This document shows, one piece after another, positions 6,001-50,745 of a stretch of DNA of 64,000 nucleotides (its first letter is position 1; each line of letters starts with the position of its first letter). The DNA is from Owenia fusiformis. Its lineage: Eukaryota. The DNA lies in the NCBI GenBank assembly GCA_903813345.2, contig CAIIXF020000001.1, positions 11,346,001 through 11,410,000 on the forward strand, read 5' to 3'. Below the pieces are notes generated by a model, which made no database searches, was not told the origin of the DNA, and worked only from the letters and a program-made list of their open reading frames with translations. A program made the translations under genes and the position numbers.

Positions 6001-7814
6001 TTATGTTTTGGAGATTATTTAAAGAGATCACCATCCAAACTGGGATTTCCTTAGTTAAAAATGAGCAGACATTATTTAACACTTTCGAATTCTAACATAA
6101 GTGTAGTACAGCATTTGCGTTTTTAGGTTTCTCCATTAACATTCTGAATTTCAAATTACCCAGATCCTACATTGTGTTCTCTGTCATTAGTACCAGTTGA
6201 TGTGTTTACCTTTGCGCAATCTGTTATCTTTCCCTGTTTTCTGGCATCTTTTGATGTAAATGTCTAGCTTATTTTTTGATTTCCCCTTCGAAAACAGTTA
6301 TTTGGATCAAAGTCTGGACGGAATGTACATCGTGTCATCTCAACCTTATGGTTTTTATACCCCATAGCACTTATTCTCCCGAGAGTTATCTGCAAGAAGT
6401 CAAAGGTTATTGTTCAGTAACCACAATTTATATTAGTTTGACGTGAGACATGCACACCATTCGAAACCAATAATTAGGCTAAAAAATGATGCTTTATTTT
6501 GTTGAGAGTGGCATGTTTTTAGAATTATTTCACCCATTAGATGAAACATATGGTTTCATGGAGTCAATGCTCGTTTTACATACTTGACATTATTTTTTAC
6601 ATCATGCAGGAATTCATTTATATACATGGCTCTGAGAATGCAGTATATTACCGGTTATATAATCAATGAATAGTCCTCGATCCTTGAATTAATTTTTATT
6701 CGTCGATGTATGTAAAAGTCTATAATTGATCTGTTGCGTTTAGCACATAATGCATGCCAGACTGGATCTATGTCATACCAGACGTAACGTATTCCCAAAA
6801 CAAAATACAATTGCGCTGTGTAAACGTGTTAAATACCAGATAAAAATAGTTGATACGTTGACCTTACCTGGTAACTGGCGGTTCATATCACATATCTGGC
6901 ATTCTAAATGTAGACGAATCGCGTCTTCATACTTTGTGTAAGTCAATTTAATTTACTTTTGATTATTTAAAGTTTCAAGAGAGATATACAAAATATGTTT
7001 GTAGCCACTGGTTCACTGATTAAATAAAATTTATTGTTCGTTATCCGACGTATTCCCAACTTTTAATTCCCAGAAAACAAGCGAAAATTGAATAAGAACA
7101 AAACAGAAAACATATTGTACATATTGGGCTTATGATAAAAGCGCGGTAAAATAATGATGGACGTAGTTAAAGTAACACCCATTAATTTTCCTGTGTACAC
7201 ATTAACAAAGGCCGAACGTAATACCTGGAACGTGCCTCGTTCGCAATTTCAATGTATTCGACGTTCGGCTTTTTACCGTATACTATTCTATCAACCATGA
7301 AATATAAACCATTGGGAAATTCCACAGACGAATGCTCTAATGCAATACATCGAAATCATCGGATTGATTATGAAAAAACAAGGATTTTCGATACATAACC
7401 CCATATACCACGGGGTAGCTCCATATATGTCCCCTCTCTAATAGAAATAATACATAGATCACCCATTGAGACAAAAGGATATGGCCGAATCATTTCGTCA
7501 TACTTTTTATAAAATTAACACAAGATAAACAAAATAAAAAATATATAAAATATGTATATTTTCACTGGTGATTACACTGATAAATCTTTATTTCAATCAA
7601 CCATCGTCCCAATTCTTGATTTCGATTTTTGTCTTTTACCTTTTCAAAAGCGCCCTCTTCCGTTTCAACAGCACCCTCTGTGGAGTAGTCCCATTGTCTA
7701 ATGAAGATCATTTAAAGCCCCGGATGTCGTGTCGTTTCGTTTGATACACAACTTAAGCCCCGGGTATTAAATAAGCCCTTGCATTGCATTGACCCGAATA
7801 CTTTCTATTTTCAG

Positions 7815-7997
7815 CATGTAAATATGACGGAAAGACATATAAACACGATAGCGTGTGGCAACCGTATGGAAATCAAGACCCATGTTTTGTTTGCAAGTGC
7901 CATAATGGAGAATTCTTTTGTGAAACGCAAAAATGTGACAAACCTAATTGCCCAGGAGCAGTAGCCAAGGAAGGGGAGTGCTGCCCGAAATGCCCAG
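7815..7997 (+). CDS. Collagen N-propeptide VWC (chordin-like cysteine-rich) exon
   Basis: Translates [60 protein letters not shown], the VWC Cys pattern (CxxCxC...CCPxC); tttcag acceptor, gtaaag donor, phase 1-1. Confidence 0.93.
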
Positions 7998-10900
7998 GTA
8001 AAGACATCACCCAAACATCTATTGTATTGTATTGTATCTTTATATCATTTAGCGTATATATATAAATTATATAATAAATATAAATTGTAATATTTAAAGA
8101 TTATACGACAATAATATACTGATTTCTCTCTCTCTCTCTTTCAGATAGTGAAGAACTTGAAAAGGTACAGAATAGCTTGCAATTAAGTATACTTTCATAG
8201 TTTAAACATAAAAAACTATCGAACTTCACTATTGTGTTTTCATGATATATTTCTATTTATTGTGAGACAGAAATACACCACTTTGTATCTAAGCACAGGT
8301 GCAAAAGGGAAAGGACCAAAAGCTGTAATGGAACCTAGCAAGAAAAAGCAAACTCTATTCGTGCATACCAGTCATAAGAAAAGAACCAAGAACCAATCCA
8401 AGACCAGAACACCAACGGACATTTCATTCATACTGACGTCATTACAATAATATATGTAGAAGCAAAAATAGAATTTTATAATTACTTTCAAGGGTCAAAA
8501 CCCATTTGCAAAGCTGTCAAAGTAATCCATAAAACACAGTAATTCACAATGACCATTATGAAAAAACTATGGCTGGTTTCGATCCCAAATTTTTCAACCA
8601 TTAAAGTCATTTTATACTTGAACGTTACTTATAGTATACCATCATTCGGAAATATAATATATTTTAATATTTCAAGATGAGGGCTGCTGCAGAAGAGAGA
8701 CTTGTGACAGTACAAGTAAGTATACGCACATTGAAAACATTGTATCATGTAAATATAACTAAATGAATGCAAACATTTGCTTAAAACATTTAAGACTAAT
8801 GAATGTGCAACGCGTTTTCAGTAAATGATAATTATCATTCAAAATACGTTACAGAATGTTCATATTGTGTACACAATTTATATACATTGGGGATTTGCTT
8901 TTAGGGACCTCCAGGACGCATCGGAAGAGCTGGACCTCGTGGAGGTCAAGGAGATAGAGTAAGTAGCTATGTCTTTAAATCATTCAGAATAACACATACA
9001 TTAAAAAAGTACATGAGCTGTCTAAAAATTAAAAAACGCGCACCTTATCTATTCATCAGATATAACTGATGGTTGCTTGACCAAATTTTCGTTGGCACAG
9101 TTGTACCCTCCACAATACTCTAGACGATTCAGCGGCAATACATAATATACATGTATATATGAGCTTAATATATATGATTATAAATTATAGGGTGACGAAG
9201 GTAGCGATGGTAACAATGGCGTCCCAGGGCCACCTGGTCCACCAGGTCCTCCAGGAGAGGTAAGCCGACTTTATTGAGCTTTTTTATTTGTTAAATGAAA
9301 TATTATAACTTGTTCAATTTGACCAGTCATTGATATTTAATTCAACATCATTTTTGTAAAGTTCTTAATGATATGTGATGTGAAATAAATGTGTATGTGT
9401 AGAGATTTCTTTTAAAAGTATTCTTAAATAATTTATTGAAAATAGCCCCTTGCTGAAATCCTCTATAACTTTAAAAACTCCAAGCTTTAAAAACAGGAAT
9501 TAGAAGAGCAAAATGGATACTATTACAAGTGATAAAAACTAAGGTTCTTAAACAGGACATGTGTCTTGATTTTCTGAGGATTTAGGTTAATACTACAGAA
9601 TAGATCACAGTATGATTTCAAGATAAAAAAAAGTCAAATAGAGCTGAATTAGTTTATGTTTGTTTTTTAACATTCCATGTGCAGTAATTGTCAAAAAGTC
9701 TACTGATAGATTTCTATTTTAAGTGAAATGTACTTGAAGTATTGTATGTAATTATATACCAGTGTCAAAATTTTACAACAATTAGTTTTGCATCCAAAAT
9801 ATATGAAAATTATAATTTAAAACAATAAAAAAGTGTTTCATGTGCATTTTAATTATTTTCTGTAGATTTGAATTAGTATTTTAGTGTAAATAGAATGTCG
9901 TATAGAATATTTACTTGTATATTCTATACAGGCACTGTAGTGTATTCTGTTTTCTTAGTTTTATTTATTCAGAAAAGTTAATATCTCCTTGATTCAATAT
10001 TCTGTTACTTTTATTTTTGGTAATGTGTTTTTTTTATTTCTGAGTGGATTCTCCTCAATATTATGTCTATATTTTGTTTGCTTTACATCCTTGGTTGCTT
10101 TGGTTACGTTATAGGCTGCAGCATCTACTTGGGACCAAGTTAGGTCAAACTGGCAGAACTCTGATAAAGCAGGCGGGGCTCAGTTCCCTCCTTCTATAGT
10201 TGCACAACAGGTACCATTGTCTGTGTGTCAACAAATAATCCCCTAACCCTCCTAAACCCCTAACATCATGTAACACAGTCTAAAACATCGAAATTTCAGT
10301 CTCTCTCTAAGGAGCTGGAATTTGGTTGGATGGTGAAATATGTGGTATTGCATCAGAACTCAAGAGACGAAAACCAGGACAGTACAAGGATCCACTTAAA
10401 TATTCATATTAAATGCAAACCATAACTGTTTCACCATTATGGAACTGAAAGCACTTATTTACTACTTATATTCTACAGTATTTTAATGGCATTGGTTACA
10501 GGCACAGGCAGCATATTGGGATACATTGAGAGAAAGCTGGCAACAAACTGAGAAGGGACCTGGCCCAAACGCGGCCTACCGTGGTCCAGCAGTGATGCAG
10601 CAGGTTGGGAAGTCATATCTTATTAACCTTAATGTTCTCAAGGATATGGATACGTTTCTAAACATGTCTAACATAACACACACTGTTGAAATATTATCTA
10701 ACTCTCTAATGAATAAAACAATTGTTATGTTGATAAAAAACAGGAAAATTAACTTTTACAAAAAGATTACACGTTCATTTTTATCACTTACATATTTACT
10801 AATGAATCTTAATATAAACTAGAGAACCATCTAAAATAAACTAATGATATTATTGTATTTTCAATGCAACTCTATGTTTAATGTAACTAATGCATTTGTA

Positions 10901-13900
10901 GTATTTACCTTTAAACATGCAATAGTCATACTTAAAACAAAACAAAAACATTTTTAGATAATATAAAATATTTAATTGAAATGAATTTCAGCACAAGTTA
11001 GTTCACTATATACAGAAAAATCATTTCTTATATCTAGGTTTGCTTCCATCCCCTCAATTTTTGTATCTTTTATTATAGGGTCCAATCGGTCCAAGAGGTT
11101 CACCAGGACAACCGGGTCCAGCAGTAAGTATTTTAATCAGGGTGATATATTCTGTAAAACATAACGAATCACGACATGAAGAATAAATATTTAGACTAAA
11201 GAATATGATAAAGCTTTTTAAGAGCTGAGTTTCAGGATACATGTTTATAGTAGCGTTGTAGCGTAGTTAATACAAAGTAGTTCTGCTGCCTGGAATAGCT
11301 TTACACTATTAAGGCGTTCTTTAGAATGTCAGACGCAACCTTATAGTTGGAAACGATTAATATTTTACAGACAGATTGTAAAAATAAACGTTCATGAGAA
11401 CAATGTTTTATTAACGGTTTAACCTAAGGAACAGGCACATCTCATCTTTGCATGTACAGTCTATTGAATTGTACCTACTCGAGCGCAATAAACAAGATGA
11501 ATTAACAACAGATTCTAGAAATTAAGATAAATGGGACAAAAAAAGAAGTTAGTTTCTTCATAACCAAGAAGCTGGCTAGCTAGCTATACCACATGTAACG
11601 GAAACTAACGGAAATGCTTGCGGTCTTATGTTACCCATGTCAGCATAATAAACAATTTGTATTCAGACTTTTTTGATGTTCTAATTTCGGACTTATGAAC
11701 TAGATCTAGCTACTCTGGTAAAAAATAAAAATTATTTTTGGTGGATTGAGCGTTGTCTGCGTCAAACATGCTGTTAAGTGAAAACACGTGGGGCACTACT
11801 ATCGACTACCCGAATATCCTAAAATAAATTAGTAAGGCTGGAAATGTTGTTTTTTGTATTGTTGGTAACCGCAGACTCACCACAAGGACATTTTTCTTAT
11901 TTATTGTCTCTTGTTTTAAGAAAAAAATTAAAATCAATGTTCTTGACATAAGGGTTTTCCAGAACAGTCTTGTTTCTGCTGGTCGCCGGACAGTTGGCAA
12001 AAACAGGATATAGATTTGACCCACCCGGGTCACCGCTAAAATAATATATTATTGCAAAGAAAATGAAATTATAATGAACCGATTTAGCCTTCTTAAATGT
12101 TTGAATGTTAATATGTTGACGTTTTGTTATAGGGTCCCCAAGGTTTCCAGGGTATTCGAGGAGAGGCAGGAGAGCCAGGACCACCGGTACGGATGCCTTT
12201 GATAACATGAAATATTTCTATAAAAAGAATTATAATACGAATTATCTACGAAAAGTAATATAATTTTAATATATACTTGATATTCTATTATATAATATAT
12301 ACATAAAGCGACATCCATAAATTAGAATAACATTGGTGAGAAATATTTATACAAAATAAACTAATTCTAATCTTTGTATATTTCAGGGTCCATCAGGTTT
12401 GAGAGGACCCCCAGGTCTTTCTGGTCTGCAAGGAAAAGATGTAAGCATTAGTCCTGAAAAGTTTAAAAGTCAACGTGCCCTAGTCATTACTTAGCTTTTA
12501 TAGCACAAGTATGCTAAAAAGTATAAACGCGTATTTATAGAAATAGTTTCACACCACTATTTTACCTGATCACATGTCTGAAAAGTCGCAAGATTCAACT
12601 GCAAACAGTTTATTCTCTTTTCAATCCGTTCTAACTGTATATCCTGGAGAGGCCACCCGCATTCATAAGTTCATAACCTAAACCGTTACTCCATGGATAA
12701 ATCTCAAATTTATTCAATTTTTGTGTGGTTCATGAATAATTCGAGGGGTTGCTAACAGTTCTATAAATCCTGATTAGATGGATTTACTTATGCAAGTTCA
12801 AGTGTGAATCCATTTGGTGTGGATTGGCTAAATCCAAAATGATCTGGGATTTAACTTTCGGCTGTCGGCTATCGGATTAACCTACTATTTTATGACCAAC
12901 TGACTTAAATATGAATAGTACCTGCCACTATTCCTTGCATATTTAAATGAGTTTTCCACAAAAAGTAAGTTAATCCGGTAGCCGACAGCCGAAAGTTGCA
13001 TTCGCGTATACAAGATAACATTTATTTGGATAATCCCCGGCACAAGGACTATAGTTAAATTCTTCAATGTTCCAGGGTGAAGTTGGACGTGATGGTGATC
13101 CCGGCTCAAGAGGTCTCCCAGGGTCTCCTGTAAGTTTTACTTATATATCTTGTATTAGAAGGGAAATTGCAGTATTCGTAAATGTTATACTTTTAAACAA
13201 GTAAAATTGCTAACATGTCATAATGGCTTAGCTATGAATTTTGGTCAATAAATCAAAAATGCTTATCTGTCTTTCCACTCAAGTTCCAAATTGAATTACG
13301 ATTATGTCTGGTTTTTGTACAACCTCCTTGCTCTCTTTCAACATGTCAGCTTTAGTTAGACCAATTACAAATTCCGATTTTGCTTTTCTGTGCTCCTTTA
13401 TTGTAGAGTGTGTAGTTTGCAGAACTATGAACGTAATAAACCATTTGTTTTAGGGTCCAAGAGGTCCATCCGGAATGCCAGGTATGCCAGGACCAAAGGG
13501 ACACAGGGTAAGTATAATATACCTTGAACAAGCGAATAATGTTCGAATATGATGTGTAACCTGGATAAACGGAGATTTAAGGCATGAGCAAAAAGATCAA
13601 TTCTAATTGGTCCATATTAATAAATGAACGTATAAGCATTCATTTGCCCGATTTGCTGCTTTACCACTATTTTATGTTTTTGGAATTTCATTTTAGGGTT
13701 ACCGAGGTCAACCAGGATCTAAGGGAGAACAAGGGCGTGGTGGTGAGAAGGGTCCCGAGGGATCCCCTGGTCCACAAGGTCCTCATGGACCAGTTGTAAG
13801 TACATGTACAGTTTCAATGTTTACTAGGATATAGCATCATGAAGGCTTTAAAACCAACATCAAAATGAAAATAACACAAATGTTCAATGATTGTTTCTCA

Positions 13901-16900
13901 AAAAGTTGACAAGCTAAAGCATATATATATGATATTTTATATAGTTATTACTTTATGCAGAAGAAATGCAATCCAATTCAGTAATTATTCTATCTTAAAT
14001 AATATCAATTTATAGGGAATCAATTGCATTGTGTTGTTGACTTAATCTTAATGCTTGTATCATCTCATGTTTAGGGTCCAAGAGGTCCAGCTGGTGAGCG
14101 AGGTAGAGATGGTAAACCCGGTCCTGCAGTAAGTATCCCTTCTATACAACAGCATGCAAGTGGACCAACATAGTTGTAATAGTAATAGAATAGAAAAAAT
14201 GGTTTGTACTTTCCTAAAAAAATATAATTTAGAAGTCGTCCATTCGTGCAAAATAAAGTAAAATATCACGCTTACTTGTTCAATATTTTAGGGTCTTAGA
14301 GGTGTTGATGGTCTAGGAGGTCCATCTGGTCCACCAGGTCCAATCGGTCAACCAGGTCCACCAGGATTCCCAGGCGCACCAGGAGCCAAAGTAAGGATTT
14401 GAGTGTGAAAAAATATATATCATTACACTATAAATTAGTCCTGATTATGATAGTATAGTTTTAATGCTGTAATTTACAACACTACTCCAATGTGCCTCCA
14501 AAAGCAGGCTAGCAATAACAAGACATGTGCGGCAAATCTAATCATCATAATTATTATATTATAGGGAGACAGAGGAGCACTAGGTTTGAAGGGTAATCAT
14601 GGTTTACAAGGTCCACGTGGTGAAAATGGAGCTCCAGGAGACGCTGGTCAACCAGGACACCAAGGTCCCCCCGGTAGAGATGGAGTTAATGGAGACAAGG
14701 GAGACAGAGTAAGTTTTCATAGTATTTATATTAAATGTTTATTTTTATATTTATTTACATGTCAGGTGTGAACCTTGGTGGATGGACAAGATGCGAGTAG
14801 AAATAATTTTGATTTAGCCTACATCATTAAATAAATAAAATTCAGTCAAAGTGATATCATTTTTGAAATACACTTTATAGAAAATATTCTGAACATTTGG
14901 CCTCACTAAAATGTGATACTTCATTGCTCCATATCACGCGAATTCAGTTTTCCGTTTTTTTCATTTTAGGGATCACCCGGTGGCCCAGGAAATCCAGGTT
15001 TCCCAGGACCCCGTGGCCAGAACGGACAAGATGGACAACCAGGCATTCAGGGAATCAAGGGAGACTCTGTAAGTTGATATTCCAAAGTTACTTTGAGACG
15101 ATTTCATAACTATTGCCCTTATTGTCAAAATGTTTGATATTTAATGTTGTTATCTGTAGGGCCAACCTGGACAACAAGGTTACCAAGGAGAAGCTGGACC
15201 AAAAGGTTCACCTGGTACTTCTGGAGATAGAGGTGCCCCTGGTCTTACCGGACCACCAGGCAAACGTGGATCAAGAGGTGCCACCGGAGCACCAGGACCT
15301 GCTGGCCTTCAAGGAGAGAGAGGTCCCCCAGGTGGTAGAGGTGCTGCTGGAGCTGATGGTCCTTCTGGTCCACCAGGTCCATCCGGTGAACGAGGAGAGA
15401 GAGGACCCAATGGAGAAGTTGGACCAACTGTAACTATATTATTATTAGTTTTCTATAATAAAAATATAATAATTCTAAAAAACGTTCGGTTGTATAATAG
15501 AAGTATTTTACATAATACGATCAATTGTTTCTATTTCAGGGCTCACCTGGTCCCCGTGGTTTGAACGGTCCACCAGGTCCAAGAGTAAGTATAATCTTAT
15601 AAACATATTATAAAGTAATCATAATCATAAATAACTTTTTTAATATTCCTGTAAGCTGTGATTCATTTGGATATAACGTTTTTGTAATTTCCTTTTTAAA
15701 GTATTTAGAATCTTAGACATAACATGTCATGTGTATTACTATGTATGTTTCTTTTAAAGGTCTATGGGTTCTTGTTGCTATTGTTTCTTTAAGTTTTGTA
15801 TTCTTGCAACTATTGTAGGGTATTGATGGCCGAGCAGGATCAGATGGTAAACCAGGACCCCCTGGTCCACAGGTAGACAAATGGCAACGATATAACACTG
15901 TTTGCTTCCCAACATTGCAACATGTGTTGAGACAAGTTTCAGACATGACGTGTAACACGTCAAAGTGAAAAGGAAACGGTTGATCGTGTTACACATGTGT
16001 TGACAGATTAAGAAACTTTTCTCCATACAGTTGCTGTTGTTTCATGAGTTCATTCATATAATGGTAATCACATACTAACTTATAGGGAACTAATGGATCA
16101 CCTGGTAAAGATGGCTTACCCGGTCCAGCTGGATTCCCAGTAAGTATGAGCTATACTGATCCTTCTAATTAGAGACGATATCATTTCTAATCAAACGACG
16201 CTCTCAAATGTTAACATAACATGAGCAATTCATTATCATCATTATTGCATAAAATTGTATTAATATCATTTCACATCAGAATAGTACTATAGCTTTAAAA
16301 GTCAAAAAAAGCTTAAGATTATATTTCCGACTCAATTTGGTATTTGGGCACGAATATATATTTACCTATACAATAACATAGGGTTTTGAAACCTATAGTA
16401 CATTAAATTATTATCAAACGCTACGTATTACATTGCATCCAATATTATATGTATTTCGCCTTCTTCACAGGTATATTTATCATTACCTAATTGAGAATAT
16501 ACGCGTACTAAAACGTTGAATGCCTATTTTCATTTATTAATTATAAACTTTTTGTTTTATCTTTTTTCATATTAATGTTATTTATTATTTCATATTTTTT
16601 AAATTATATTTTATGATAAAGTTATATTTTGTTCGTTAGACGTAAATATTTTTATCTTTATGAATTATTACAATTTTTATTTTACCTATATTCTATTCTT
16701 TCTGTTGAAATAATTTAATAATAGATATATATAAGTACTTTCATTTTTGGTATTTCAGTGACAAAACATATAATTTTGTTAATGATATTGTTATAGATGT
16801 ACTAATTTTATCATAGCTGTCGTTAAACGTCTCATTTTCTACATTTAACCCAGTGCTATTTACAATAATAATTGCTTTGGTATGTTTCAATGAATCAAAT

Positions 16901-19900
16901 ATTTTAGGGTGAAGCTGGTCAAGACGGCAAACCAGGTGAACAAGGACCACAAGGTATCCAAGGTCTTCCAGGTATGCAGGGAACGCCCGGCCAGAGAGGA
17001 TTCCCAGTGAGTTCATATAATTAGTATCAAAATATATCATATAAAGCAATAGCGATGATTCGATTACTGACTAGCATTATAATTTACAGGTTTGATAATA
17101 TTCTATATTTTATTTAAGTAAGATCTATGTTATAAGTGATATCACTTAATTCAAGATGAATAAAAACAGAAGGAGCTCACGTGTCTCGAACTGAAGACCT
17201 CGTGGTTATGACACAGCGCCTAGTTTGGCTTGTTTCTTATTGATGTGATGTATTCTAGGGAGAGGCTGGAAAAGATGGAAAACCTGGAGAGACTGGACCA
17301 TCAGGACCACAAGGGGACCGAGGCAAACCAGGCAACGATGGTAAACCAGGACCACAAGGAGCTCCCGTAAGTTACACTAAGTAACTATATAAATGTGATA
17401 ATATTTAGGATTTTTGTTCCTCAGATTTCATAATCAATAATATGTTTAATATCGTGAATTCCAATTCAATTCTGATTCATGAATGCTTTTCACATGATAT
17501 AAGCTTTGATTTCATTATTTGATTAATTTCACTTTAATGCTTTCTTTAGCAATATGATTATACTACAATACAATCACCAGGCCATGTAAATGATATCCAT
17601 GATGTCTATTTTGTATAGGGAGAGGCCGGTGATAGAGGTCAGCCAGGTAATCCAGGACCACCAGGATTCCAGGTATGTTCATATAAACAAATATAAAAAT
17701 GTATATACAGTAAGGGTATTTGACACAACAGCAATTATAGTTTCATGTCATTTGGGCATATAGGTCCGTGTTTCTGGTATAATTTGATTATCTAAAAATA
17801 TTTTTATGTTACATTGTATATTTCTCATATCTATGAATCATGCTACTTAATATGATGATATGTTTATTTCAGCATCATTGAGCGGCACAATGTCGAATGA
17901 TCAACAACGCTTTGTGCCCCTTCTCTGCGAAACTTCGTTTATTTTTAGTACAATACAGTACAACAGTTGACTTTGTTTTCAGCGATTTTGTAATATCTAT
18001 ACATTTGACATTAATTAAAGTTACATAATAAGAATAAATTCAAAAAATAACTTTAAAGTATACATACATTTTATTTAAATGATACAAGTTTTGTTATATG
18101 GTATTTCGGGCGGCTATTGTAGGGACTCCCCGGAGAGAACGGCAAAGCAGGAGAGCCAGGCAAGCCAGGAGAAGTCGGACCTCCTGGACCACAAGGGTCT
18201 AGGGGTGATGTTGGTCCACCGGTGAGTCAGGATGTGATCACAACACATCAAGGAAAGGACTAACCAAATAACTGCGCAACATTACATAACCACTGGACAT
18301 AACTCCATACCTAACACTCAGCTTTAATTGTTTTCAGTACTAAGGATGGCAACCATGGAGTAACATTAACTATAATGTCATCAACTAATCATCGCATAAT
18401 AATGTATCACAATTCAGGGTTTACCTGGTGAAGCAGGCACAGCTGGTGAACCCGGCAAAAATGGAGAAATTGGACCTCCTGGCCCAGCCGGGTCTCGTGG
18501 TGGCGTTGGCTTGCCGGTATGTGAGTGCCTGCTGCAAACGCACTTGGGCTCGGACTGTATGTCTGTTTTGTATGTTCAGTGTCGTTGCATCATACATTGT
18601 ATTGTCGTCTCTGTGTGCTTGAAACATCAGCCCTTGCATGTTAGGCAACAGTATGATTATTAGTGACGGAAGGTCGTCGACTTCTGCAAATGATGTCTCA
18701 ACAGGTGCATTAAAGAGCATGTAAGCATAAAGAAAATGTTCACTATGTGCATATTTAGGGTCTTCCTGGAGAAGTAGGACAACCAGGAACTCCTGGAAAG
18801 GATGGTGATGCTGGGGCAGCTGGTCCCCAAGGTGCACGTGGTGCGATTGGATTACCCGTGAGTGACCGCGATTTCCACACGTAGATTTGAAAGCTAGTCC
18901 ATTCAATACCCTTTGTATTTTAGACTCCGTAGTACTTTTAAGTTTCATTATTATCCTTTCGATCCTAGCTTACGAGATTACCTTTTCCTTGCTTCTAACC
19001 CTTGTAGGCACCAACATTATTACATCTTATACATCAACGAAATCAGAATTGACATCAGAGGAAAATTAGAAAAACATTCCTCTTCATTGCTTATATGTTT
19101 CTACTGTTTTATTGGTACTATACCTAGTACAAGTGTACAACACTCACAAATGAACTTTGGAGGAACAGCTAAATAAACAAACGGATTTTGGAAAAAACAA
19201 TTGGGCGAGTTGTACTCGTATTTTTACTAATTATGATTTTCTGTCTGGCATTTGAACTTTTTGTCTTTCGTTGTCTGGGATCAAAAGGTTCCAGTGCCTT
19301 TGCGGGTTGAGTTAACCTTCAGAGAGCTTTCCACCATTTCAATATCTCTTCTCAGCATCTCTTGGTGGTGGTTTACATCTTGAGATATCCTGAAACTGCG
19401 GTCCTATTCCACATACTATTTATGTTTCAATTGTTTACCTTTGTATATTTTCCTTTTATATTTTGCTGTCATTCAATTGCATGTTTATTTGCATTCAGTA
19501 TTTCTTTTTTGAATTTGTTAGTTCGTTCGTAATTGTCATGCATTCTTATTAATATTATTGCATGTATGTCAAGTCCTTTGTTTCACATTAACATGTTCAA
19601 CATCTAAACAAAATGCCAGTATTTGATATTCTTAACTGAATTAACCATAATTTTCTTAATTCAATATATGGAAGCTATTTAGTAAGATGCTTACTAAAAA
19701 TACTGATTTATAAAAAGATGAATATAGCTGCATGAGTGAGGGATATTATTTCTAATTGTTGTTTATTATGTTTTCAAAATGGAAAACGAGCAGAGGTAAG
19801 TGCACCCATATGGTACATTGATACAACTTTTATCAAATTTGATTCTGGAATTACTCTACGGTAACCTTTTTATAGTCCAAGTTGTACCTAAATAGATGGT

Positions 19901-22900
19901 GTTTATAAGCTGATCCCCTTTAATGTAATGTAAACAATCACGTCGAAATATATTATCACAAATAAATGTAATAGAGCAAATTAAACTAAAGATGTAGAAC
20001 AAAGTGTAACATATAACTTTGTGAAAGTACAAAGACTTCCTGTGGTAACAAAAGAACACGTTAACTTATAGGGAGAGCGAGGTCAACCAGGAGAACGTGG
20101 CGAGGCTGGAAAAACTGGAGCACCAGGAGATCGTGGACCAGGTGGACCCTCAGGAAAAGATGGTGAACGAGTGAGTTAATTAAAAAGTAGTTCATCGTCA
20201 AAAAATGAATCAAATGACATTATTAGATACTATATACATGTATGAATTTGAAGAAAAGTAGTCTACTTGGGATTTACTAAACAATTTAAGTTACATAAGT
20301 TAAAGCTAATATGTGGCCCCATCCCGCTTGGTTCTGTTATTGTTTTCTTGGTTGACTCTGATCGTTTCTTCATAAACATTTATGCTAAACATGTTTGTTA
20401 TCTAATACAGGGACTGCCTGGAGAACGAGGAGAGCCAGGACCCCAGGGAACTGCAGGTTTAGTGGTGAGATAATATTCTTTTAGCTTAGCATTCAAATAA
20501 TATCAATGATTTAAAACTAAAAGTACCCTAAACTACAAGTTGGAATACTCATATAATCAAAGTACATGATTTATCATAAACTTACTGAAAATTAAAAATC
20601 AAATCTCACTGGAGTATCAGACATTGAAAAGAACAAAAAAACTGATTGACATCAACTAGTGACAGAGTGTAGTGTAGTTAAGTGACGATACGTGTTTCTG
20701 AAATTCCAGGGTCTGCCAGGTCAACGAGGAGAGCCAGGAACATCAGGACCAAAGGGAGAACGAGTAAGTTAGGCTTGTCTGGATTTAAGTACTAGTATTT
20801 ACAGTAGAGTAATATGCTTTAAAATGTCAATTGGTAGGTTAAAGTCCTTCACAGTATGTAGTACGTTTGAAAAAAACAATTACAATTTACAATTACAGTA
20901 ATAACCTTCATATTTGTAATTACTTTTACAATAGAAATTCACTGTCACAGGTATGTATGCGGTGTTCGCAGGGGTTGGGTGCGTTGGTTGCGAACACACC
21001 CCCTTCTTGACCAAATGCCCAAAAATTTCGTTATTCAATACTCAGAGGAAATAACCATGTGCTCCAGAGAAAATGGTGGAGAAGCTAGGCTTCAAGTGCA
21101 AGCTATAATGTTTTTTAGACACACCCCTTGAAAAAATCCCAGGGACGCCCCTGGTATACATGTAAACTTGTACTTAAGTAAAATTGTTTATCTAGATGGC
21201 ATTATTAATTGTGTTCTTTAATTGATTTACTTTTCCTAAATGTTATATAGATGATTTCTTTGTTTTAGGGTAACAGTGGAAATTCTGGACCACCAGGACA
21301 ACAGGGTAAACAGGGTCTCCCCGTAAGTATGCAGTATTCAATAGACTCATTGAATATTAATGTTGATTATAATCAACCTCGTACATACATAGTAAGAAAT
21401 CAGAAAGGTATAATTTTTTCATCAATTATTCCTACATTATATTTGCGTTGCAAACTGTTAATAGGGTGAAGCTGGAACCCCTGGTCCAAGTGGGCCCCAA
21501 GGGTTAGCTGCTCCAAAAGGTGAAAATGGACAACCAGGTCCAGCTGGGCCTAGAGGAGCGACGGGTAAATCAGGAAACAGAGGGGCTCCAGGAACACCAG
21601 GACCAGTTGGTCTCCCAGGAACTCCAGGACTTGCCGGTAACCCCGGTCCTAAAGGTGACACTGGCGCTGCAGGTCCCCGAGTAAGTTCTAATTTTTTTCA
21701 TAAGCATTGAAAATATTAACATTGAATTTTATATTATAGGGTGAACAAGGTCCTAAAGGTGCAGTAGGTCTCCCAGGTAAAGATGCACCAAAAGGTGAGG
21801 ATGGCGCTGCAGGGCCACCAGGTCCAAGAGGTGCCCCAGGTAAAACTGGCAACAGAGGGGCTCAAGGGTCACCAGGATCTCAAGGACTGCCCGGTACCCC
21901 TGGACTTCCAGGCCAGGCTGGGGCAAAGGGAGACGGGGGAGCAGCAGGTCCACGTGTGAGTAAGGCGTGATCAACTGAGCCTGATGACCACTCACATGTA
22001 ACAAATGATGTTATAATTCAACTCACCTATAACTTTTTTCTCTTATAGGTCTAACTATAACACATGGTATGATACTAGCATACAAATGTACCAAGGATGT
22101 GCAAAAGGATGTGTCCATGCAGAAAAATAATATACATTATGATAACATAGAATATAACTTGTAATGAAAGCTAAGCCTACTATTCTAATCTCGAGATATG
22201 CATATAATAGATGTTTATTTTAATAAACCTAATTGAAACATTATGAAAATGGTTTGACTCAACCAGTTTGCTTGTTGTTTGGATGATATTATCATTTAAA
22301 ATGGGTTTGTTTTGTTTGATTTAAACCTGCATGTTTATTATTTACTCAGTTTTTAGGGTGTCCACTATCTTTAGCCTAATACTATCATGTAACCCTGTAT
22401 GTATCTTGATTTGTTTGAGTTATCTATCTTTTTATTAATTCTGATTGTGTTATATTACTTATAAATCATTTAGGTTGTAACTTTATTTTACCCGAATATT
22501 ATCTGTTATTCCTTTTGAAACAATTGCTTTCAAATGGTATTAGTTTTGCCCCAAAATTATTTAAGTTGATATCAATAGAATCTCTTTTTTATTTTGCCTT
22601 TCAAGTATTCTCGACCCTTGTGATTTTCATTTCGATTAACCTGAGTATATTATATTTATGTTTTGTTTTGCATTCTGTCCTCTATCCTTTAGATATTCTG
22701 TCGCTTAATTTGACCCTCTTTTCAATGTCCAAAATCAATAGTATAGCCTCTAACTACTCCATAATGCAATGTGTTTGATATTTGATGAATAGGGTCCCAA
22801 TGGTGCTATTGGTGTCCCAGGTCCCCAAGGAGAAGCAGGTCGAGCTGTAAGTATAACTTTTACACATACTGTACATCTAAATTTTACAATCTGACATATT

Positions 22901-25900
22901 TTTGTTTATAGTATATTTTAAAATTCTTTGTTAATATAATTGTGTATAGGCTCTGTAACTTGTTATATCAACTGATTCAATGATTCTCCTAAGAAAATAA
23001 ATGCTTCTGACATGAATGATTCTTAAAATAGGGAAAAGACGGTATCCCAGGTAGACAAGGAAAGAGAGGAGATCCAGGTGTTCCCGGAGACGCAGGACCA
23101 CCAGGTGCCCCAGGACGACCAGGTCAATCAGGATCTACTGGCCAACCTGGAAGCCCAGGTACCCCAGGAGCAGCAGGCAAAGAAGGAATCAAGGTATCAA
23201 TTTTATTGAATACTGGATCTGGGCGCTAAGACTGTTATCTTAATCAGAAATATGTTGCTCTCTTATTTATTTATTTTTAGTTCATTTGTTCATTCTTCAT
23301 ACATAACATCTTGTTCTCTTATTTAGAGTTGCAGGAAGACTTGATTGGTTCATTACATAGTGTACCAATATATTCGATAGGAATACTATAAGTATTCTAT
23401 ACTAGAGTATTAGGTTTACTCAATTCAATGTTTACAATTTAATGACATGTTACTTATTCATCTCTTCTATTACTTAGGGAAGCCGTGGTGAGTCTGGACG
23501 ACCAGGTAAGGATGGTATCAACGGAAACACAGGACCTCAGGGACCCCCAGGAGAGAAGGGCGGTAATGGTGAAGATGGCAAGGATGTGAGTGTTGCTCAG
23601 TTGCTGGAACATGAGAACTTAATACAATATGTCCCATTGTTTAGTTATATAATAGATCTTATTGCTAAATTAATGAAATTATCCAATGCAAATAAGCAAT
23701 TTATTCTATTCAAAATTGCAGTATATCATAAGAGTATATTCTAGGTATTCTTTTAGTTTTGCATAGTGCTGATATTAAACGAAACTTATAATGAGTAACC
23801 AATTTATAATAAGATGCATACCTTGCCATTTGTGCTATGATAGGGTTTACCAGGTCCCCAAGGTCCACCAGGCCCACAGGGAGAGCGTGGTCTCGTAGGC
23901 TTACCCGGTCTGAGAGGAGAGCGTGGTCCAACTGGTGCTGGAGGACCAAGAGTAAGTTGGATAGTTTGCCTAATATTAGCACTTACTAATACTTCTACAT
24001 GTGTGTTATATTTAGGGTGCACCCGGTGTTCAGGGACCTCCCGGTCAAGCGGGTAACCGTGGATCACCAGGAATGCCAGGTATGGCTGGGGAGAGAGGTC
24101 CTACGGGTCCCGCCGGAGGACGTGTGAGTTACATTCACCAGACTAAGCATGTGCCTTGCCACACGCTTACGATCACCTTGACGTGGTCGAACTTGCATTT
24201 CATGTCCAAAGAAGTTGCTGCTCCAGTAGACTCCGATAGGAATACTTTTTTTGTAGCTTTCCCTACCAATTTCGCCTTATCCGATGAAGGTTTTTGTTGC
24301 ATTCCTTCAGACATATCAGTTATCTCAAGCATATACGTTTGTTGGTTTGGCAGAAAGGAGAAGGTGACACCCGGAGTTTCAAGTAAACGTTTATTGTGAA
24401 AATAAATATATTAAAGTTAAGTTTTCTCAAAAGATGCAGACTCAACAACCATTCGTTCAAATCATATTCTGATTCATAGACGCTGCATGTCTTCTTCCTC
24501 CTTGGCCCCTTTGAACGCCAATCTCCATAGATCACATTCCCAAACCCATATGCGTGCATGTTTAGGTACTTCCTCGCAAAGCTACATATACTATATGAAT
24601 TCCCATGAGGCGTCTCTTTGTATCTTTGAAATGCTGTTGAAACATAGATGATGGTGCGCAACAATGAATTTAGGAAACAAGTTGGGCATGTGTTTGAAAG
24701 AAGAAGGGAGGCGGTTTATGATCGATGAAGTTGTGTAGGGTCTGTATCTTTAAAAAGACGAAACTTCGGGTGAGACGGGCTGCCCATGTAGTAGTTTAGA
24801 TTGCTATGGTATTACAAACACAGTCTGCATGTGTTTAAGGTGTGCCCTATGGCCAGCTGAGTAATTATTTTAGTTGTACATATATGAGCTATTATACCTC
24901 ATGAATGTTTGCCAAATGGACGTGATATTTCTGTTGGTGTGTGTATGAGACTAGCTTCTATAGTTTTATATTCAGTTTTACCTTGTATTGTATAAATGTG
25001 TGTTGCATTTTGGAATGCGATGTCAATCCAACTGCTGGAATCAAAGCACCAACTATTCAATTGTCTTCTCAAGATGTACTTGGTTTATTATATCGTCTCA
25101 GACTCCCGAGAGCCAAATCAATTACTATATATTAACAAACTTTTATTTTGCATCATGGAATAAGGTGTAATTCATTAAAGATGCAGCCCCTATCATTAAA
25201 CTCTTTACGCATTCATCACATTTCTACTTCATTTGCACATTAAATGCACTGGAGCATATCCACTACTGTTTCGCAACGTATTCATCGCATGAACATTGAA
25301 TATGACGTTTTTAATCAATACGTAGAATATGATATATTTTAAAGCATAGGTGAAGGTGTTTGGTCAAAAGTTTTCTTTAGAAATGAATTATACTGGGTCT
25401 GCATCTTTAGAGGATAAGATATGGATAATGTAGAATTTCTTTTTACTTAAATAACACTGATTTTTTAATGTATTAATTTAGAGATATATGTGTATTAAAA
25501 TTATGTAAGTGATGATCATAAACCATACAATTGTAAATATGTGTATGATAATGACTCGCGTATGCAAATTAGTTAAACCGTATGCTCAGCCAATCAGGAT
25601 CAAGATAAACATCTAAGCTTGTATTCGCGAATGCAAATAGCGGCTGTTGGCCACCGGATTAATCTACTATTTTATGACCAATTTATTTAAATATGAATAG
25701 GACTTGCCACTATTCCATTCATATTTAAATGAGTTTGTCATAAAATATTAGGTTAATCTGGTAGCCGACAGCCGAAAGTTGCATTCGCAAATGCAAGCTA
25801 AATGTTCTAACTGTTTTCGACAAATGGGCTACTTAACATATTTTTGATTTTTTAGTCAAACAATTTGTGAATGGTTCTAATTTTGATTTTGATTTTATAA

Positions 25901-28900
25901 CAGATTTCCTGAGAAAAAGTAACAAAATATTTTTGAAACTGGATTAAAATTACCTTTGTCATTTTAGGGTGAATCAGGATCAGCCGGAAAAGATGGACGG
26001 CCAGGTGACAATGGACGACCAGGACCACAAGGCAACCCTGGACCACCAGGTCTCACTGGAGAACAAGGACACGAAGTAAGTTTATTTAGAAGTAAGACAG
26101 ATATACTGTAGTTGTATTGTAGCTGTACTGTAGTTAGTACTATAGAATGCCATTTCATGTTTTCTTTTTAATAGCAATACACACAGACTCAGTTATATCA
26201 CGTTTTATATTTGCTTAGGGTACACCCGGTAAAGATGGTGCCCCTGGTCTTCAAGGACGCCCAGGAGACAAAGGACCACCCGGCTCTGCAGGCAACCCAG
26301 GACCACAAGGTCTCCCAGGACCTCAGGGACCCCCAGGCGCAACCGGATCTGCTGGTTCTCCAGGAGCCCGTGGTGAGAACGGAGAACGTGGTCCAGCTGG
26401 TGTCCGAGGACCTCCAGGTGCTAGAGGCTCAGCAGGATCTCCTGGTGTACAGGGAGAGAAGGGTCAGCGTGGAGATAGAGGAAACAAGGGAGATAAGGGT
26501 TGGCAGGGTCTTCCAGGTCTCCAGGGTGTGACTGGTAACCCAGGTCCCCAGGGAGAGGATGGTCAACCAGGTCCACCTGGTCCAGCTGGTTCAAGAGTAT
26601 GTAAAACTCTCCAAATTCATTTGATAATATAAACTTGTGATGATAATACAATCTGAAATAATATTAAATTCTTCCGTTTTTTTGTACATTTATATATATA
26701 AATCATTAATGCGTTGTAGGGTCAACAAGGTAATCGTGGTCAACCAGGTCAAGCAGGATCTCCCGGACAACCAGGTTCCATTGGACCCCCTGGTCCCCGT
26801 GGTCCCGAGGGTAGCGACGGGCGCAATGGGCCACCAGGACCTCCAGGTCCACCAGGTCCCCCAGGTCCTCCAGGTGGTGATGCTGGATGGGGTGGAAACA
26901 TTTGGTCAAGACCAGGACCAAAAGGACCCGACCCACTTTTGGTATGTCTTCACTTGTATGTTTCTCCTCTCCACCATGCTGAAATTGATAAACTTAATAA
27001 AAACCATACAAGTTTGAATATATAAGCGCAAATGCCAAAGGGAACGGACCAAAAACTGTAAAGAAAGCTAGTAAAACTGGGGCGTTATTTGATGATTTAT
27101 TTATAGGGTGACGAAGCACCAAAGGATGTCTTTGAAGCCATGAATCGTCTTGAAAAGGCCATTGAAACAATTAGGAAACCCGATGGTACACAAAAAGCTC
27201 CAGCAAGAACCTGCAAAGATCTCGCCAACTCCAATCCCGAATTTGAAGATGGTAAGTATTACTAACCAATTATGTCCAAATGTAGTGCCTATCATCATGT
27301 TCATTGATGATATTCCAATGCATGTAATTGTCCTCTAAGTTGGATTTGATATGTTTTCATCATATATATTCTGTTGATTGTAGGTATGTACTGGATTGAT
27401 CCTAACCAGGGCAGCATTGCTGATGCCATCCAAGTGTGGTGTAATATTGGCGATTATGAGACTTGCATTCTGCCAAAACCAGAAGAGGTAAAAACTTTGC
27501 TACATTAAAATGAATATTTCATCATTTATTTTAATACTTTTGTCTTGTAATATATTCGCGATTCATTTTACTCCTAGCAACACTAGTAGATGGGTTAACT
27601 ACATTTGGACTTCATTGTATGATGCAAATGTCCCATTTGGCATGGAAGTTCCTTTGTGCAATAGAAATAAATTTATCCAAAGACACAAGCTAGATGGCGC
27701 TTTATATTGGAAATATACACATTTTTTAAAATGGCCGCCAAAAATTCATCAGAGACAATATATTTGATTCTGTGCATGCTACAAGTATAAGATTGGTGTC
27801 AAAAAATACAGCAATGTAGTCGTAGAATCTATTTTATTAGATCTTGAGTCTTGAAAATTAAGAACTTCCACTTTATATTCAAAATATATGCATTTTTCAA
27901 AATGGCTGCCAGAAATATAACAAAAAAGATATCTTCGCTTCTAAGCATGCTACAATGATAAGAGTGGTGTCTAAGTATACATTAATATTGGGTTGTAGAA
28001 TCCATTTAAATAGGTCTTTCTTAATAAGACTTTTCACTTTATAGGAAATTATGTATTTTTAAAAATGGCCACCAGAAATATAACAATGATGATATCCTCA
28101 CATCAGTGCATGCTACACTGATCCGATTGGTGTCAAAATTTTATATTTATGGGGTAGGAGAATCAATTTTATTAAGTCTTGTCAATCATCGGATACTTCT
28201 TCTGCAAACTATATCAACTGCGGCGTCCCTAAGGGATCCATCCTAGGTCCACTTTTATTTTTGATTTACATAAATGACTTACCCGATGATCTTTTTGGAA
28301 AGGCATTTATCTACGCTGATGAAACATCACTATATTACCCCTTCGATCCATCCGATCCTGACATGCATACTATCAATCATGATCTTAATATCATAACTAA
28401 CTGGTCTAAAAAATAGAAAGACAGAGGAAGTTATCTTTCAAAGCCAGCGCTGTGTATTTGCTACTCCGCCACCTTTAGCCAAACTTGGAAATGGGGAAAT
28501 TAAAAGGAATAATCTTCATAAGCATCTAGGGTATACTTTTGATTATCTTCTTTCTAACAAAAATCATATATATGACATTGTCAAGAGAGTACAAAAACTG
28601 CTTAATCCATTGAAGGCACTTACATCAAAAATTAACTCGAAACATTTGGAGACAATGTACAACTCATTCATAAGGCCTCATTTTGATTACGCAGACATTC
28701 TTTATCATTCATCAACTCAAGTACTGATCAATATCCCTAGCAATTTACATTATCAGGCTGCATTATTGTGTTCTGGGTGTCTCCATGGCTCTGATACAGG
28801 TAAAGTTATGGGGGTCTTAAACTGGTGCACACTATCCCAAAGGAGGGAACAACACATTCTTAACTTCATGTACAAAGTAATCAGAAACCAGGTACCTTCC

Positions 28901-35315: not shown

Positions 35316-37105
35316 TCATTCAGAATCCGTGTCAGATTCTGTTTTTGATCTTGTAGAAACGCACAGATTCCTTCTGAGGAACGACCTAATTGCGTTCCGC
35401 TTGGTTTTTTCCTCAAGTGACACTTTTTCGGTTATCTCGACTGTTTCTGTTCCCCCAATTTGGCCGCCTTGTGCTTCCATGTCGGCAATATCATTTTCAC
35501 TGTTGGCATACCTATCTGCATAAGTGTCAATATAAGTATCAGTTTCGTACGCATCGTCAATGTTATGAAAATTCTCAACCTCGGAGTCGTTTTCATTATC
35601 TTCGTCGTCTTCATTATTCTCTTTATCATCGTCTTCGTCATCGTCTTCATTATTCTCTTCATCATGGCCTTTGTCATCGTCTTCATTATTCGCTTCATCA
35701 TCGTCTTCGTCATCGTCTTCATTATTCTCTTCATCATCGTTTTCGTCATCGTCTTCATTATTCTCTTCATCATCGTATTCGTCATCGTCTTCATTATTCA
35801 TTTTATCATCATCTTCGTCATCGTCTTCAATATTCTCTTCATCATCGTATTCGTCATCGTCTTCATTATTCGCTTCATCATCGTCTTCGTCGTCGTCTTC
35901 ATTTATCTCTTCATCATCGTCTTCGTCATCGTCTTCATTATTTTTGTCATCATCGTCTTCGTCATCGTCTTCATTATTCTCTTCATCATCGTATTCGTCA
36001 TCGTATTCATTATTCATTTTATCATCGTTTTCGTCATCGTCTTCATTATTCTCTTCATCATCGTCTTCGTCATCGTTTTCATTATTCTCTTCATTGTTGT
36101 TAAGGTTCATCCTGAGTTTAATATAGATAAGTCGTGTCACTGCGTATTTACAGAAGGATTTGTAGATTTTATCGAAATCTGTCAAATTTGGGCGATACTT
36201 TAATTCCAGCTGTAAAAATACATTGTGCTATATGTATTTTGCATACAACGATCACATTTTCAATTTTCTGAAAAGTGCTGGTCATTTTAAAAGCAATAAA
36301 ACGTACTTTGACTATTCGTATTTACGATTATTTGATTAACAATTCAACCTGAACGTACAACTTTGTTCCGGAAGTGCGAGATGAAGGCATCTATTGTGAC
36401 ACCATCACAATATGTAGCAGAATGTTCGTTTGTATTCATATCTAGGGATGATGGTCTTCCCCAATTTCTAGGCACTACCAAAGTACCGCCGGAAACAAAC
36501 ATTTTGTATATGTCGTTATGGTTGGAGGGAATGGTCGCAGTGCTGGATGGTTCGGACTCATGCCTTCTTTTAAAAGCTCTATTAAAAATTGCATAAGAAG
36601 TATTACCAGATCGTCTTGCAATGTCCGATTGGGTCGTAGAAATAGCGCCATGTCCCATGTATCTACGGAACAAACTAGATAAATTTGCCCGATGATTTGC
36701 CACGTCTCTTGATGTTTCGGGGCTATACGTTCCTTCTCTGCGATTTCCGTAGCTTTGTGGAGCTCGATATGGAACATTCGTAAATCTTGATACGTCAATT
36801 GCGTCTATATTCAACTCTGCTGATCCGGCTGACGAGTCTTCTACCTCTTCGCTTGATATAGAAGTGGTATCTTCATTATCATAATGAGGCAAATTGTAGT
36901 TAAACTCGCCCTCTTCAATTGGCATTGAGGGGGTATCTTCATTATCATAATGAGGCAAATTGTAGTTTAACTCGGAGGCTGAAAATGTGGCGCCTCGTCC
37001 TCTTGGGTTGTACTCTTCGGATTGGTCTGGAAAATTGTAAATACCTAAATTCAAGGTCCATTTTCTCAAATTGAATCTTTTGATCGTTAAAGCTCTTAAA
37101 CACAT
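35316..37105 (-). CDS. Orphan protein with long Asp/Glu/Asn-rich repeat; probably one spliced gene
   Basis: Two long stop-free ORFs (36344-37105, 35316-36185) can be joined in frame by a 149-nt GT-AG intron (36358-36210: RNKV|gtacgt...tttttacag|LELKYRPNLTDF); TATAAAAG upstream, AATAAA downstream on the minus strand. No family recognised. Confidence 0.55.
35595..36100 (-). repeat. Coding ~36-bp tandem repeat encoding (NNEDDDEDDDEE)n
   Basis: tcatcatcgtcttcgtcatcgtcttcattattctct unit, about 13 degenerate copies. Confidence 0.92.

Positions 37106-40978: not shown

Positions 40979-50745
<9,767 letters not shown>

Follow-up and report, generated by a model that had tools for sequence, protein, structure and literature searches.

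Five sets of tandem exons in a fibrillar procollagen gene of Owenia fusiformis: evidence for mutually exclusive splicing within a helix of constant length

Introduction

The major helix of a fibrillar collagen is usually seen as invariant within a gene, with chain diversity arising from gene duplicates and from splicing in the propeptides. Among A- and B-clade fibrillar procollagens, COL2A1 (exon 2, which encodes the VWC domain), COL11A1 and COL11A2 splice their N-propeptides alternatively. Here, we analyze a stretch of 64,000 nucleotides from Owenia fusiformis (GenBank assembly GCA_903813345.2, contig CAIIXF020000001.1, positions 11,346,001 to 11,410,000 of the forward strand; hereafter the window, with position 1 as its first letter). 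From about 7.8 to 33.06 kb, its plus strand carries one fibrillar collagen gene composed of a VWC domain, a minor helix, a major helix, and a COLFI domain. Five places in the N-telopeptide and major helix of this gene hold tandem exons that appear to be alternative versions of the same chain segment. In contrast to COL2A1, COL11A1, and COL11A2, which vary a propeptide that is removed, the variable parts of the window gene stay in the mature fibril.

Mutually exclusive splicing itself is known. Exons 9 and 10 of let-2 in Caenorhabditis elegans form a pair whose use switches during development, the third-last exon of COL5A1 belongs to the C-propeptide instead of the major helix, and insect myosin heavy chain is spliced in a mutually exclusive manner at several exon clusters. 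The let-2 gene encodes alpha2(IV) collagen, and its exon pair is alternatively spliced (PMC2119826). The tandem let-2 exons resemble those of the window gene in being alternative versions of one Gly-X-Y stretch, with one per mRNA. The let-2 gene differs in that it codes for a network-forming type IV chain with many interruptions and without a fixed D-period length, and in that it has one pair instead of five sets and no telopeptide variant. Human COL5A1 has a mutually exclusive pair, exons 64A and 64B, within a fibrillar collagen gene (bioRxiv 10.1101/2023.05.06.539689). Unlike the situation in the window gene, this is one pair at the third-last exon, and helix sequence and register are untouched.

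Multi-cluster mutually exclusive splicing has been described for Dscam1 (PMC4835542). Dscam1 and myosin heavy chain share with the window gene separate clusters of duplicated exons, from each of which one is taken, so that the numbers multiply. The clusters of the window differ in being small (2-3 copies) and in contributing to a structural polymer of fixed length, and a crude search revealed no docking/selector pairing. Several such clusters inside the length-locked helix of a fibrillar collagen are new. A full-text search, the scope of which leaves out most subscription journals, found no paper on mutually exclusive exons in a fibrillar collagen major helix. In two surveys of human tandem duplicated exons (PMC8373072, PMC9741552), the word collagen is absent from the main text, although their supplements may list collagen genes, and in a review of marine invertebrate collagens (PMC11766948) the terms splicing, isoform, and exon do not occur. 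The isoforms discussed below may already be present as unnamed models in the public annotation of the species.

Results

Five exon sets and the length of the major helix

The major helix is spread over 34 exons (11079-26881), each of which opens with a Gly codon right after AG and closes right before GT. All 34 are in phase 0 and have a length that is a multiple of 9 nt, with sizes built on 54 nt (45, 54, 99, 108, 162 nt, etc.), and the cumulative boundaries are presumably those of human COL1A1. In a scan for Gly-X-Y runs, 38 were located on the plus strand between 8.9 and 26.9 kb, and the sole run on the minus strand was the mirror image of a GPP run.

Five tandem exon sets were recovered where an earlier note on this DNA, made from the sequence without database searches, had described them: telopeptide exons of 96 and 102 nt, 2 × 54 nt, 3 × 99 nt, 2 × 216 nt, and 2 × 108 nt. 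All members lie on the plus strand, are open and in phase 0, and have intact AG and GT sites. The first set precedes the major helix and comprises T_A (10115-10210; 96 nt, 32 residues), with a lysine in DKAGG (a DK motif), and T_B (10502-10603; 102 nt, 34 residues), with a lysine in EKGPGP. Helix residues 358-375 are encoded by two 54-nt exons, 54_a (15819-15872) and 54_b (16086-16139), the latter with a TACTAAC-like motif just before its acceptor. Three exons correspond to residues 463-495, namely 99_A (18123-18221), 99_B (18418-18516), and 99_C (18759-18857). Residues 583-654 are encoded by 216_A (21465-21680) and 216_B (21740-21955), separated by an intron of 59 nt (21681-21739), and residues 763-798 by 108_A (23844-23951) and 108_B (24016-24123), separated by 64 nt (23952-24015). 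Members of a set differ in local composition: 99_A has eight prolines and an RGD versus five prolines and no RGD in 99_C, 216_B has five lysines versus three in 216_A, and two GER motifs (GPQGER, GLRGER) were read by eye in 108_A versus one (GMAGER) in 108_B.

The number of triplets depends on how these sets are used. All 34 helix exons in series amount to 402 triplets (1206 residues), whereas one exon per set gives 338 triplets (1014 residues), and our recount agrees on both figures with the earlier note. With one exon per set, Gly opens 337 of the 338 triplets. The sole exception is an alanine at residue 598, which opens a break triplet (APK, 598-600) that is found in both 216-nt copies (21510-21518 and 21785-21793). 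A layout of 597 residues, APK, and 414 residues arises only if one exon per set is counted. The helical lysines lie at residues 84 (KGHR) and 927 (KGW), 843 residues apart; the earlier note had placed them at 87 and 930. Further landmarks are GFQ, which closes exon 17619-17672 at residues 460-462, and KEGIK at 722.

Transcript contigs with one member of each set

Public sequencing runs were mapped to positions 8800-27600 of the window, namely the contigs of run X7, which carries the same species label, and the raw reads of the RNA runs X13, X14, and X15. Several runs with this species label contained about a fifth to a quarter of the words of the stretch, which equals its exonic share; among the runs listed, none on record as RNA contained the stretch. 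Because the X7 contigs are spliced with GT..AG joints, X7 represents cDNA.

At the telopeptide set, X7 showed joints 9257->10500 and 10601->11077, by which T_A is skipped and T_B included, and the corresponding depth bin (bin 3) accounted for 102 nt only. At the other end of the helix, joints 23585->24016 and 24123->25968, both at a depth of 56.5, skip 108_A and include 108_B. The sets in between are spanned by a contig of 3020 nt (depth 49.1). Downstream of 15429 it has 1263 letters, where one exon per set predicts 1260 plus 3 (GGT, common to both 108-nt copies) and serial inclusion predicts 1728. Upstream of 15160, it extends over 981 letters back to 8905, with T_B as the only telopeptide exon, and over another 506 letters further 5'.

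Flat contig depth was used to convert each 627-nt bin into exon letters, and constitutive bins came out exactly (108.0, 153.2, 315.4, and 43.0). A depth model with one exon per set reproduced the observed values in bin 3 (7.99 observed, 7.99 predicted), bin 12 (4.23 and 4.23), and bin 21 (18.2 and 18.2), the last with 216_A alone, and came close in bin 15 (4.38 versus 4.54) and bin 16 (7.57 versus 6.81). The serial model predicts 15.51, 8.46, 35.12, 10.96, and 15.89 for bins 3, 12, 21, 15, and 16, respectively, which is too high by about twofold or more. Bin 15697-16323 held 54.0 letters at contig depth; therefore, one of the two 54-nt exons, 54_a or 54_b, is absent. Sequence variants at 18800 and 21557 on the contig of depth 49.1 place 99_C and 216_A in the main mRNA, and the depth model likewise fits 99_C. 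In X7, 99_A and 216_B were seen only on unspliced contigs (depth 3.22 and 4.1, respectively), and 99_B was without clear spliced coverage. The exons at 20411 and 20710 had also been considered as the 2 × 54 set and were rejected, both being present in the X7 contig.

The 108-nt set gave a different picture. After subtraction of 108_B, bins 24 and 25 left a remainder that requires 108_A at a depth of about 17-36. In addition, the 3020-nt contig stops 3 letters (GGT) past 23585 and its successor begins right at 25968, which is what a merging of two paths would produce. Judged from depth and contig ends, the 108-nt set is thus the only one that appears to be used both ways in the X7 sample.

Contig letters and depth model of this one run describe a mature mRNA with exactly one member of each set. 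Together with the 1014-residue register of related transcripts (see below), this supports the core of the earlier note, which had proposed one exon per set and a constant helix length.

Two X7 contigs matched the window at 17259-17309 and at about 18418-18487 and then continued as letters absent from the window; the one leaving at 17309 went on in the Gly-X-Y frame. Another collagen gene with short near-identical stretches is probably expressed in X7. Separately, in each of the four runs, the short intronic stretches 12861-12935, 14782-14869, and 25613-25736 were covered to high depth by sequences with unlike flanks. These stretches resemble pieces of repetitive elements that are transcribed, and it was they, not the collagen exons, that took most of the raw RNA reads.

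A conserved register in related transcripts

A profile of the C-propeptide exon retrieved 72 loci from metagenome and metatranscriptome contigs; an earlier metagenome scan with the single exon instead of an alignment had found no relative. Sixteen of the 72 loci (L003, L006-L012, L014, L015, L017, L019, L020, L026, L027, and L066) are spliced transcripts in which the only break triplet precedes the helix end by 414 residues. The triplet at 598-600 reads ASK, APK, SPK, AER, or AEK and occurs in all 16 related transcripts that reach this point. This Gly-to-Ala/Ser break looks like a conserved imperfection of this collagen family. The helix measures 1014 residues in all ten full-length transcripts (including L010, in which the Gly-X-Y run opens a triplet sooner), and all ten share KGHR at 84-87 and Lys927 with the window gene. 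Their linker between minor and major helix is single, 30-33 residues long, and has one (E/D)K motif (10/10). T_A resembles the linker type of L003, and T_B the EKGPGP type of the other relatives.

The position of the copies was assessed by scoring each variant against the ten helices at every triplet offset. The 99-nt copies A, B, and C ranked 2, 2, and 1 of 328 offsets at residue 463, the 216-nt copies ranked 7 and 11 of 315, and 108_A ranked 10 of 327 in this test, which is only moderately sharp because six constitutive control exons ranked between 1 and 101.

No close transcript of the window gene, or of the second gene described below, was present among the 72 loci. Protein searches with the 378-nt exon returned, among longer proteins, only generic collagens at 35-54% identity, and the C-propeptide exon found two fragments at 66%. 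HMMER against representative proteins gave 439 matches at E ≤ 0.001, and all among the 150 matches listed were short. No protein of similar length matched 216_A at E ≤ 1e-8.

Likeness and constraint of the copies

The copies are related but old. Nucleotide identity was 0.68, 0.60, and 0.61 among the 99-nt exons, 0.66 for the 216-nt pair, and 0.59 for the 108-nt pair, compared with a median of 0.48 over 107 equal-length exon pairs, and T_A and T_B share 9 of 21 aligned residues (E 2e-06). Homology is thus above background in four sets (T, 99, 216, and 108) and weak in the 54-nt pair, which is defined by triplet count and RNA, not by likeness.

Between copies, dS was 1.29-3.01 (saturated), dN 0.23-0.45, and omega 0.11-0.28. 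Every copy retains its frame, Gly periodicity, and splice sites, and the net charge is equal inside each helix set (0/0 for the 54-nt pair, -1/-1/-1 for the 99-nt exons, +3/+3 for the 216-nt pair, and +2/+2 for the 108-nt pair). A scan of the introns between 8 and 28 kb for at least 4 Gly-X-Y triplets found no decayed copies. Saturated dS together with intact frames, glycines, splice sites, and charge is hard to reconcile with dead copies.

Exon clusters in a second gene

Among seven fetched loci with at least 2 spliceable helix exons, homologous neighbor exons were found in one, L002. This is a genomic contig from another organism, with 18 helix exons and a C-propeptide exon that is 66% identical to that of the window. 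It has a 2 × 108 set (exons at 2072 and 2241, spanning 2072-2348; 61-nt intron, 75% amino acid identity), a 3 × 108 set (3444, 3894, and 4557, spanning 3444-4664; 64-75%), and a 2 × 72 set (5857 and 5997, spanning 5857-6068; 68-nt intron, 67%). At non-Gly positions, identity was 0.46-0.50 for the L002 copies versus 0.12-0.21 for ordinary equal-length neighbors.

The helix end of L002 runs on into the following exon as GPPGDA. When counted back from this end with one exon per set, L002 matches the exon sums of the window, the 378-nt exon of the window corresponding to 108+54+54+108+54. The KGW lysine then lies 87 residues from the helix end, as in the window. In the positional test, the L002 copies ranked 6 and 1 at residue 799 and 3, 1, and 1 at 835, with the 72-nt pair weaker (141 and 9). 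The positions of the L002 sets are constitutive or single in the window, the exon matching the 108-nt set of the window is single in L002, and L002 is without the Gly break found at 598-600 in the window. Clusters at other helix positions suggest a recurrent evolutionary route, not a single oddity. At about 8096-8430 of L002, the peptide around a 16-residue segment of the C-propeptide occurs twice in neighboring frames; either a small duplication at this site or an error of assembly could account for this.

Introns within the sets

Of the 39 introns listed for the gene, the two smallest are those inside the 216-nt pair (59 nt) and the 108-nt pair (64 nt); the next smallest measures 91 nt. The distance from the 5' splice site to the A of the best branch-like motif is 38 nt in the former (TTAAC) and 37 nt in the latter (TACTAAT). 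Such distances between 5' splice site and branch point are below what the vertebrate spliceosome tolerates, as in alpha-tropomyosin exons 2 and 3. Intron size and branch-point distance suggest that the 216-nt and 108-nt pairs are excluded sterically, in that 37-38 nt would be too short for a copy to be spliced to its neighbor. The likeness to alpha-tropomyosin extends to only two of the five sets. The introns inside the T, 54, and 99 sets measure 196-291 nt, and here the choice would be made by regulated competition between splice sites. Since all copies are in phase, frame shifts and decay offer no control over the choice; our default guess is that splicing factors regulate it. A repeat search in the 99 cluster found only AT-rich chance pairs.

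The remainder of the gene and its neighborhood

Judged by its sequence, this is an A-clade-type fibrillar procollagen gene, because a VWC exon and a minor helix lie upstream of the major helix and a C-telopeptide and C-propeptide exons matching COLFI lie downstream. It combines a COLFI (NC1) C-terminus, a near-uninterrupted helix of about 1014 residues, a VWC domain with a short minor helix, and 54-nt-based exons, as expected of a fibrillar collagen. All exons given below are on the plus strand.

The VWC exon of the N-propeptide (7815-7997; 183 nt, phase 1-1) matched Pfam VWC with E 1.7e-10 (41.4 bits versus a cut-off of 27.6). Being symmetric, it could be skipped without a frame shift. The VWC exon of vertebrate COL2A1 is skipped likewise. 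A candidate micro-exon of 20 nt (8145-8164), the best-scoring AG..GT candidate of the right phase, would mend the frame between the VWC exon and position 8677. A short N-propeptide exon (8677-8715) is joined to 8905, as the loose end of an X7 contig before 8905 equals window positions 8686-8715. It is followed by two minor-helix exons (8905-8958 and 9191-9259), seen as Gly-X-Y runs and connected by the X7 joint 8958->9191. A search of positions 1-7814 gave no exon 1 coding for a signal peptide.

Constitutive major-helix exons fill the space between the sets. Twelve lie at 11079-15584 (residues 1-357, including KGHR at 84-87; X7 joints and depth), three at 16908-17672 (99, 108, and 54 nt), and three at 22793-23585 (54, 162, and 108 nt), the latter two groups resting on sequence and X7 depth. 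Four more (99, 54, 54, and 54 nt) occupy 20072-21322, where X7 bins 19 and 20 hold 141.7 and 105.0 nt, so that both 20411 and 20710 are in. The region 25968-26941 comprises the final exons of the helix, to which they contribute 108, 378, and 162 nt with K927, and the C-telopeptide; it is covered by an X7 contig of 2281 nt at a depth of 216.7.

Five C-propeptide exons (27107-27251, 27384-27487, 32205-32279, 32521-32742, and 32911-33057, the last with the stop codon) form an open joined frame supported by X7 joints. Three of them matched Pfam COLFI (PF01410; E 3e-22, 5.7e-18, and 1e-10), each exceeding the 26.2-bit cut-off. The C-propeptide (27107-33057) has six cysteines; those we take to be missing are C2 and C3, the interchain-bond cysteines of vertebrate numbering. 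In vertebrates, presence of C2 and C3 bears on the choice between homotrimer and heterotrimer. The 4.7-kb C-propeptide intron (27488-32204) contains a LINE-like reverse-transcriptase remnant on the plus strand (28093-29035) in two frames (open reading frames (ORFs) 28093-28416 and 28397-29035), with a Pfam RVT_1 match on 28093-28413 (E 7.1e-07). This remnant does not contribute to the collagen chain. A tandem repeat with a 21-nt unit lies in the same intron (29783-29890).

Elsewhere in the window, the minus strand carries a long ORF at 35316-36227 over 13.6 copies of a 36-nt repeat (35605-36094) without a Pfam match, an ORF with an SPRY domain at 58609-59463 (E 1.9e-20), and, at 45840-46244, a weak FAD_binding_4 match of 23.1 bits, below the cut-off of 26.4.

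Discussion

Triplet arithmetic, one cDNA sample, and the register conserved among relatives give good support to the use of a single exon from each set. We therefore favor, with a probability of about 0.78, mutually exclusive splicing in which one exon is taken from each of five old tandem-duplicated sets while length and register stay constant. Two or three old duplicated exons would encode each of five chain segments (N-telopeptide; helix residues 358-375, 463-495, 583-654, and 763-798), and all of these exons would be used somewhere in the animal. Given one exon per set, the products all retain a helix of 1014 residues with lysines at 84 and 927, a single break at 598-600, and the same net charge in each module. 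Change would be confined to the local sequence: how much proline a segment contains, its RGD and GxxGER-type motifs, and the residues around the lysine of the telopeptide.

Several observations weigh against mutually exclusive use of all copies. The informative RNA evidence is one run, consisting of contigs only, with an RNA label guessed by software, and the detail drawn from it rests on 15 of 38 joints and 8 of 103 pieces. Only 78, 76, and 70 reads of X13, X14, and X15, respectively, fit the gene, mostly on repeats, and are not informative on expression, X15 contributing one read at each of two constitutive joints. For five of the 11 copies (T_A, 99_A, 99_B, 216_B, and one 54-nt exon), there was no transcript evidence in X7. 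Contigs also drop rare forms, so that minor mRNAs with two copies of a set or none may accompany the main one. The 54-nt copies ranked 19 and 93 of 333 and 108_B ranked 41 of 327 in the positional test. With a nucleotide identity of 0.56 and 3 of 12 non-Gly residues alike, the 54-nt pair is less alike than the unrelated constitutive pair 20411/20710 (0.63). Among near-identical foreign transcripts, 15 pairs profiled of 38 at >80% identity showed scattered differences only and no block-wise swaps, and thus those organisms give no sign of the same splicing. Steric exclusion is inferred from intron sizes and distances. Finally, a search for docking/selector pairing in the 99, 54, and T sets (11-mers with at most 1 mismatch in 7 layouts; crude, with neither G-U pairs nor comparative data) found none.

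Some of these points would fit a gene with one working copy per set, the others being relics that are ignored or used as noise, so that essentially one chain is made, or two with the 108-nt pair. A single unbranched X7 contig runs through T_B, one 54-nt exon, 99_C, and 216_A, while 99_A and 216_B occur only on unspliced contigs at depth 3-4, and the 54-nt pair is hardly alike. Yet the synonymous sites of the copies are saturated and all of them still keep Gly periodicity, frame, AG/GT, and the charge of their partner, with not one decayed copy in the introns scanned. Both 216-nt copies retain the break of the family, 108_A seems to be expressed beside 108_B, and T_A and T_B each resemble a different linker type of other organisms. 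Taken together, this makes the persistence of relics unlikely.

A less strict choice is more doubtful still. The copies could behave as cassette exons, some mRNAs having two copies or none and the gene several helix lengths. Every copy is in phase 0 and a multiple of 9 nt in length, so that two copies in one mRNA would leave the frame intact and not provoke decay; the 196-291-nt introns of three sets could be spliced, and rare forms are hidden by contigs. Set against this, the main X7 mRNA has exactly one member per set, ten of ten full-length relatives keep 1014 residues, K84, K927, and one break, and a chain of any other length would not stay in register within the trimer. That all copies are read in series into a 1206-residue helix, the outcome which the earlier note had named as incompatible with its proposal, is scarcely credible: every exon is open and in phase and an ab initio gene finder would probably chain them, but in X7 the letters (1263 where 1728 are needed), the depth in bins 3, 12, 15, 16, and 21 (off by about twofold or more), and two skip joints contradict it, and it would give two breaks versus one in relatives.

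If mutually exclusive splicing is accepted for the window gene, the clusters of L002 invite a broader reading, which we put forward tentatively and with the odds leaning somewhat against it. The fibril-forming collagens of this lineage might be modular, repeated exon duplication having produced swap-in cassettes within a length-locked helix, so that a single locus could give rise to dozens of chains (as many as 48 in the window gene), each compatible with the same D-periodic fibril. Such isoforms would differ in local stability, in cell-binding motifs (the RGD of 99_A, the GxxGER counts of 108_A and 108_B), and in the context of the telopeptide cross-link. With a C-propeptide in common, different isoforms could assemble into the same trimer. 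Another collagen transcript being probably expressed in X7, the notion of a single gene as the source of every chain stays conjectural.

One practical consequence concerns annotation: a gene finder that links every in-phase exon would wrongly predict a helix of 1206 residues. The copies also offer natural isogenic variants in which local helix stability, integrin-type motifs, and cross-linking can be compared. If mutually exclusive splicing of the five sets holds true, a gene that swaps segments of the mature helix and telopeptide at constant length, lysine register, single break, and module charge would show which features the fibril constrains. The properties of the matrix would then be tunable tissue by tissue without new genes, and splicing of a single gene would give chain diversity that vertebrates obtain from paralogues.

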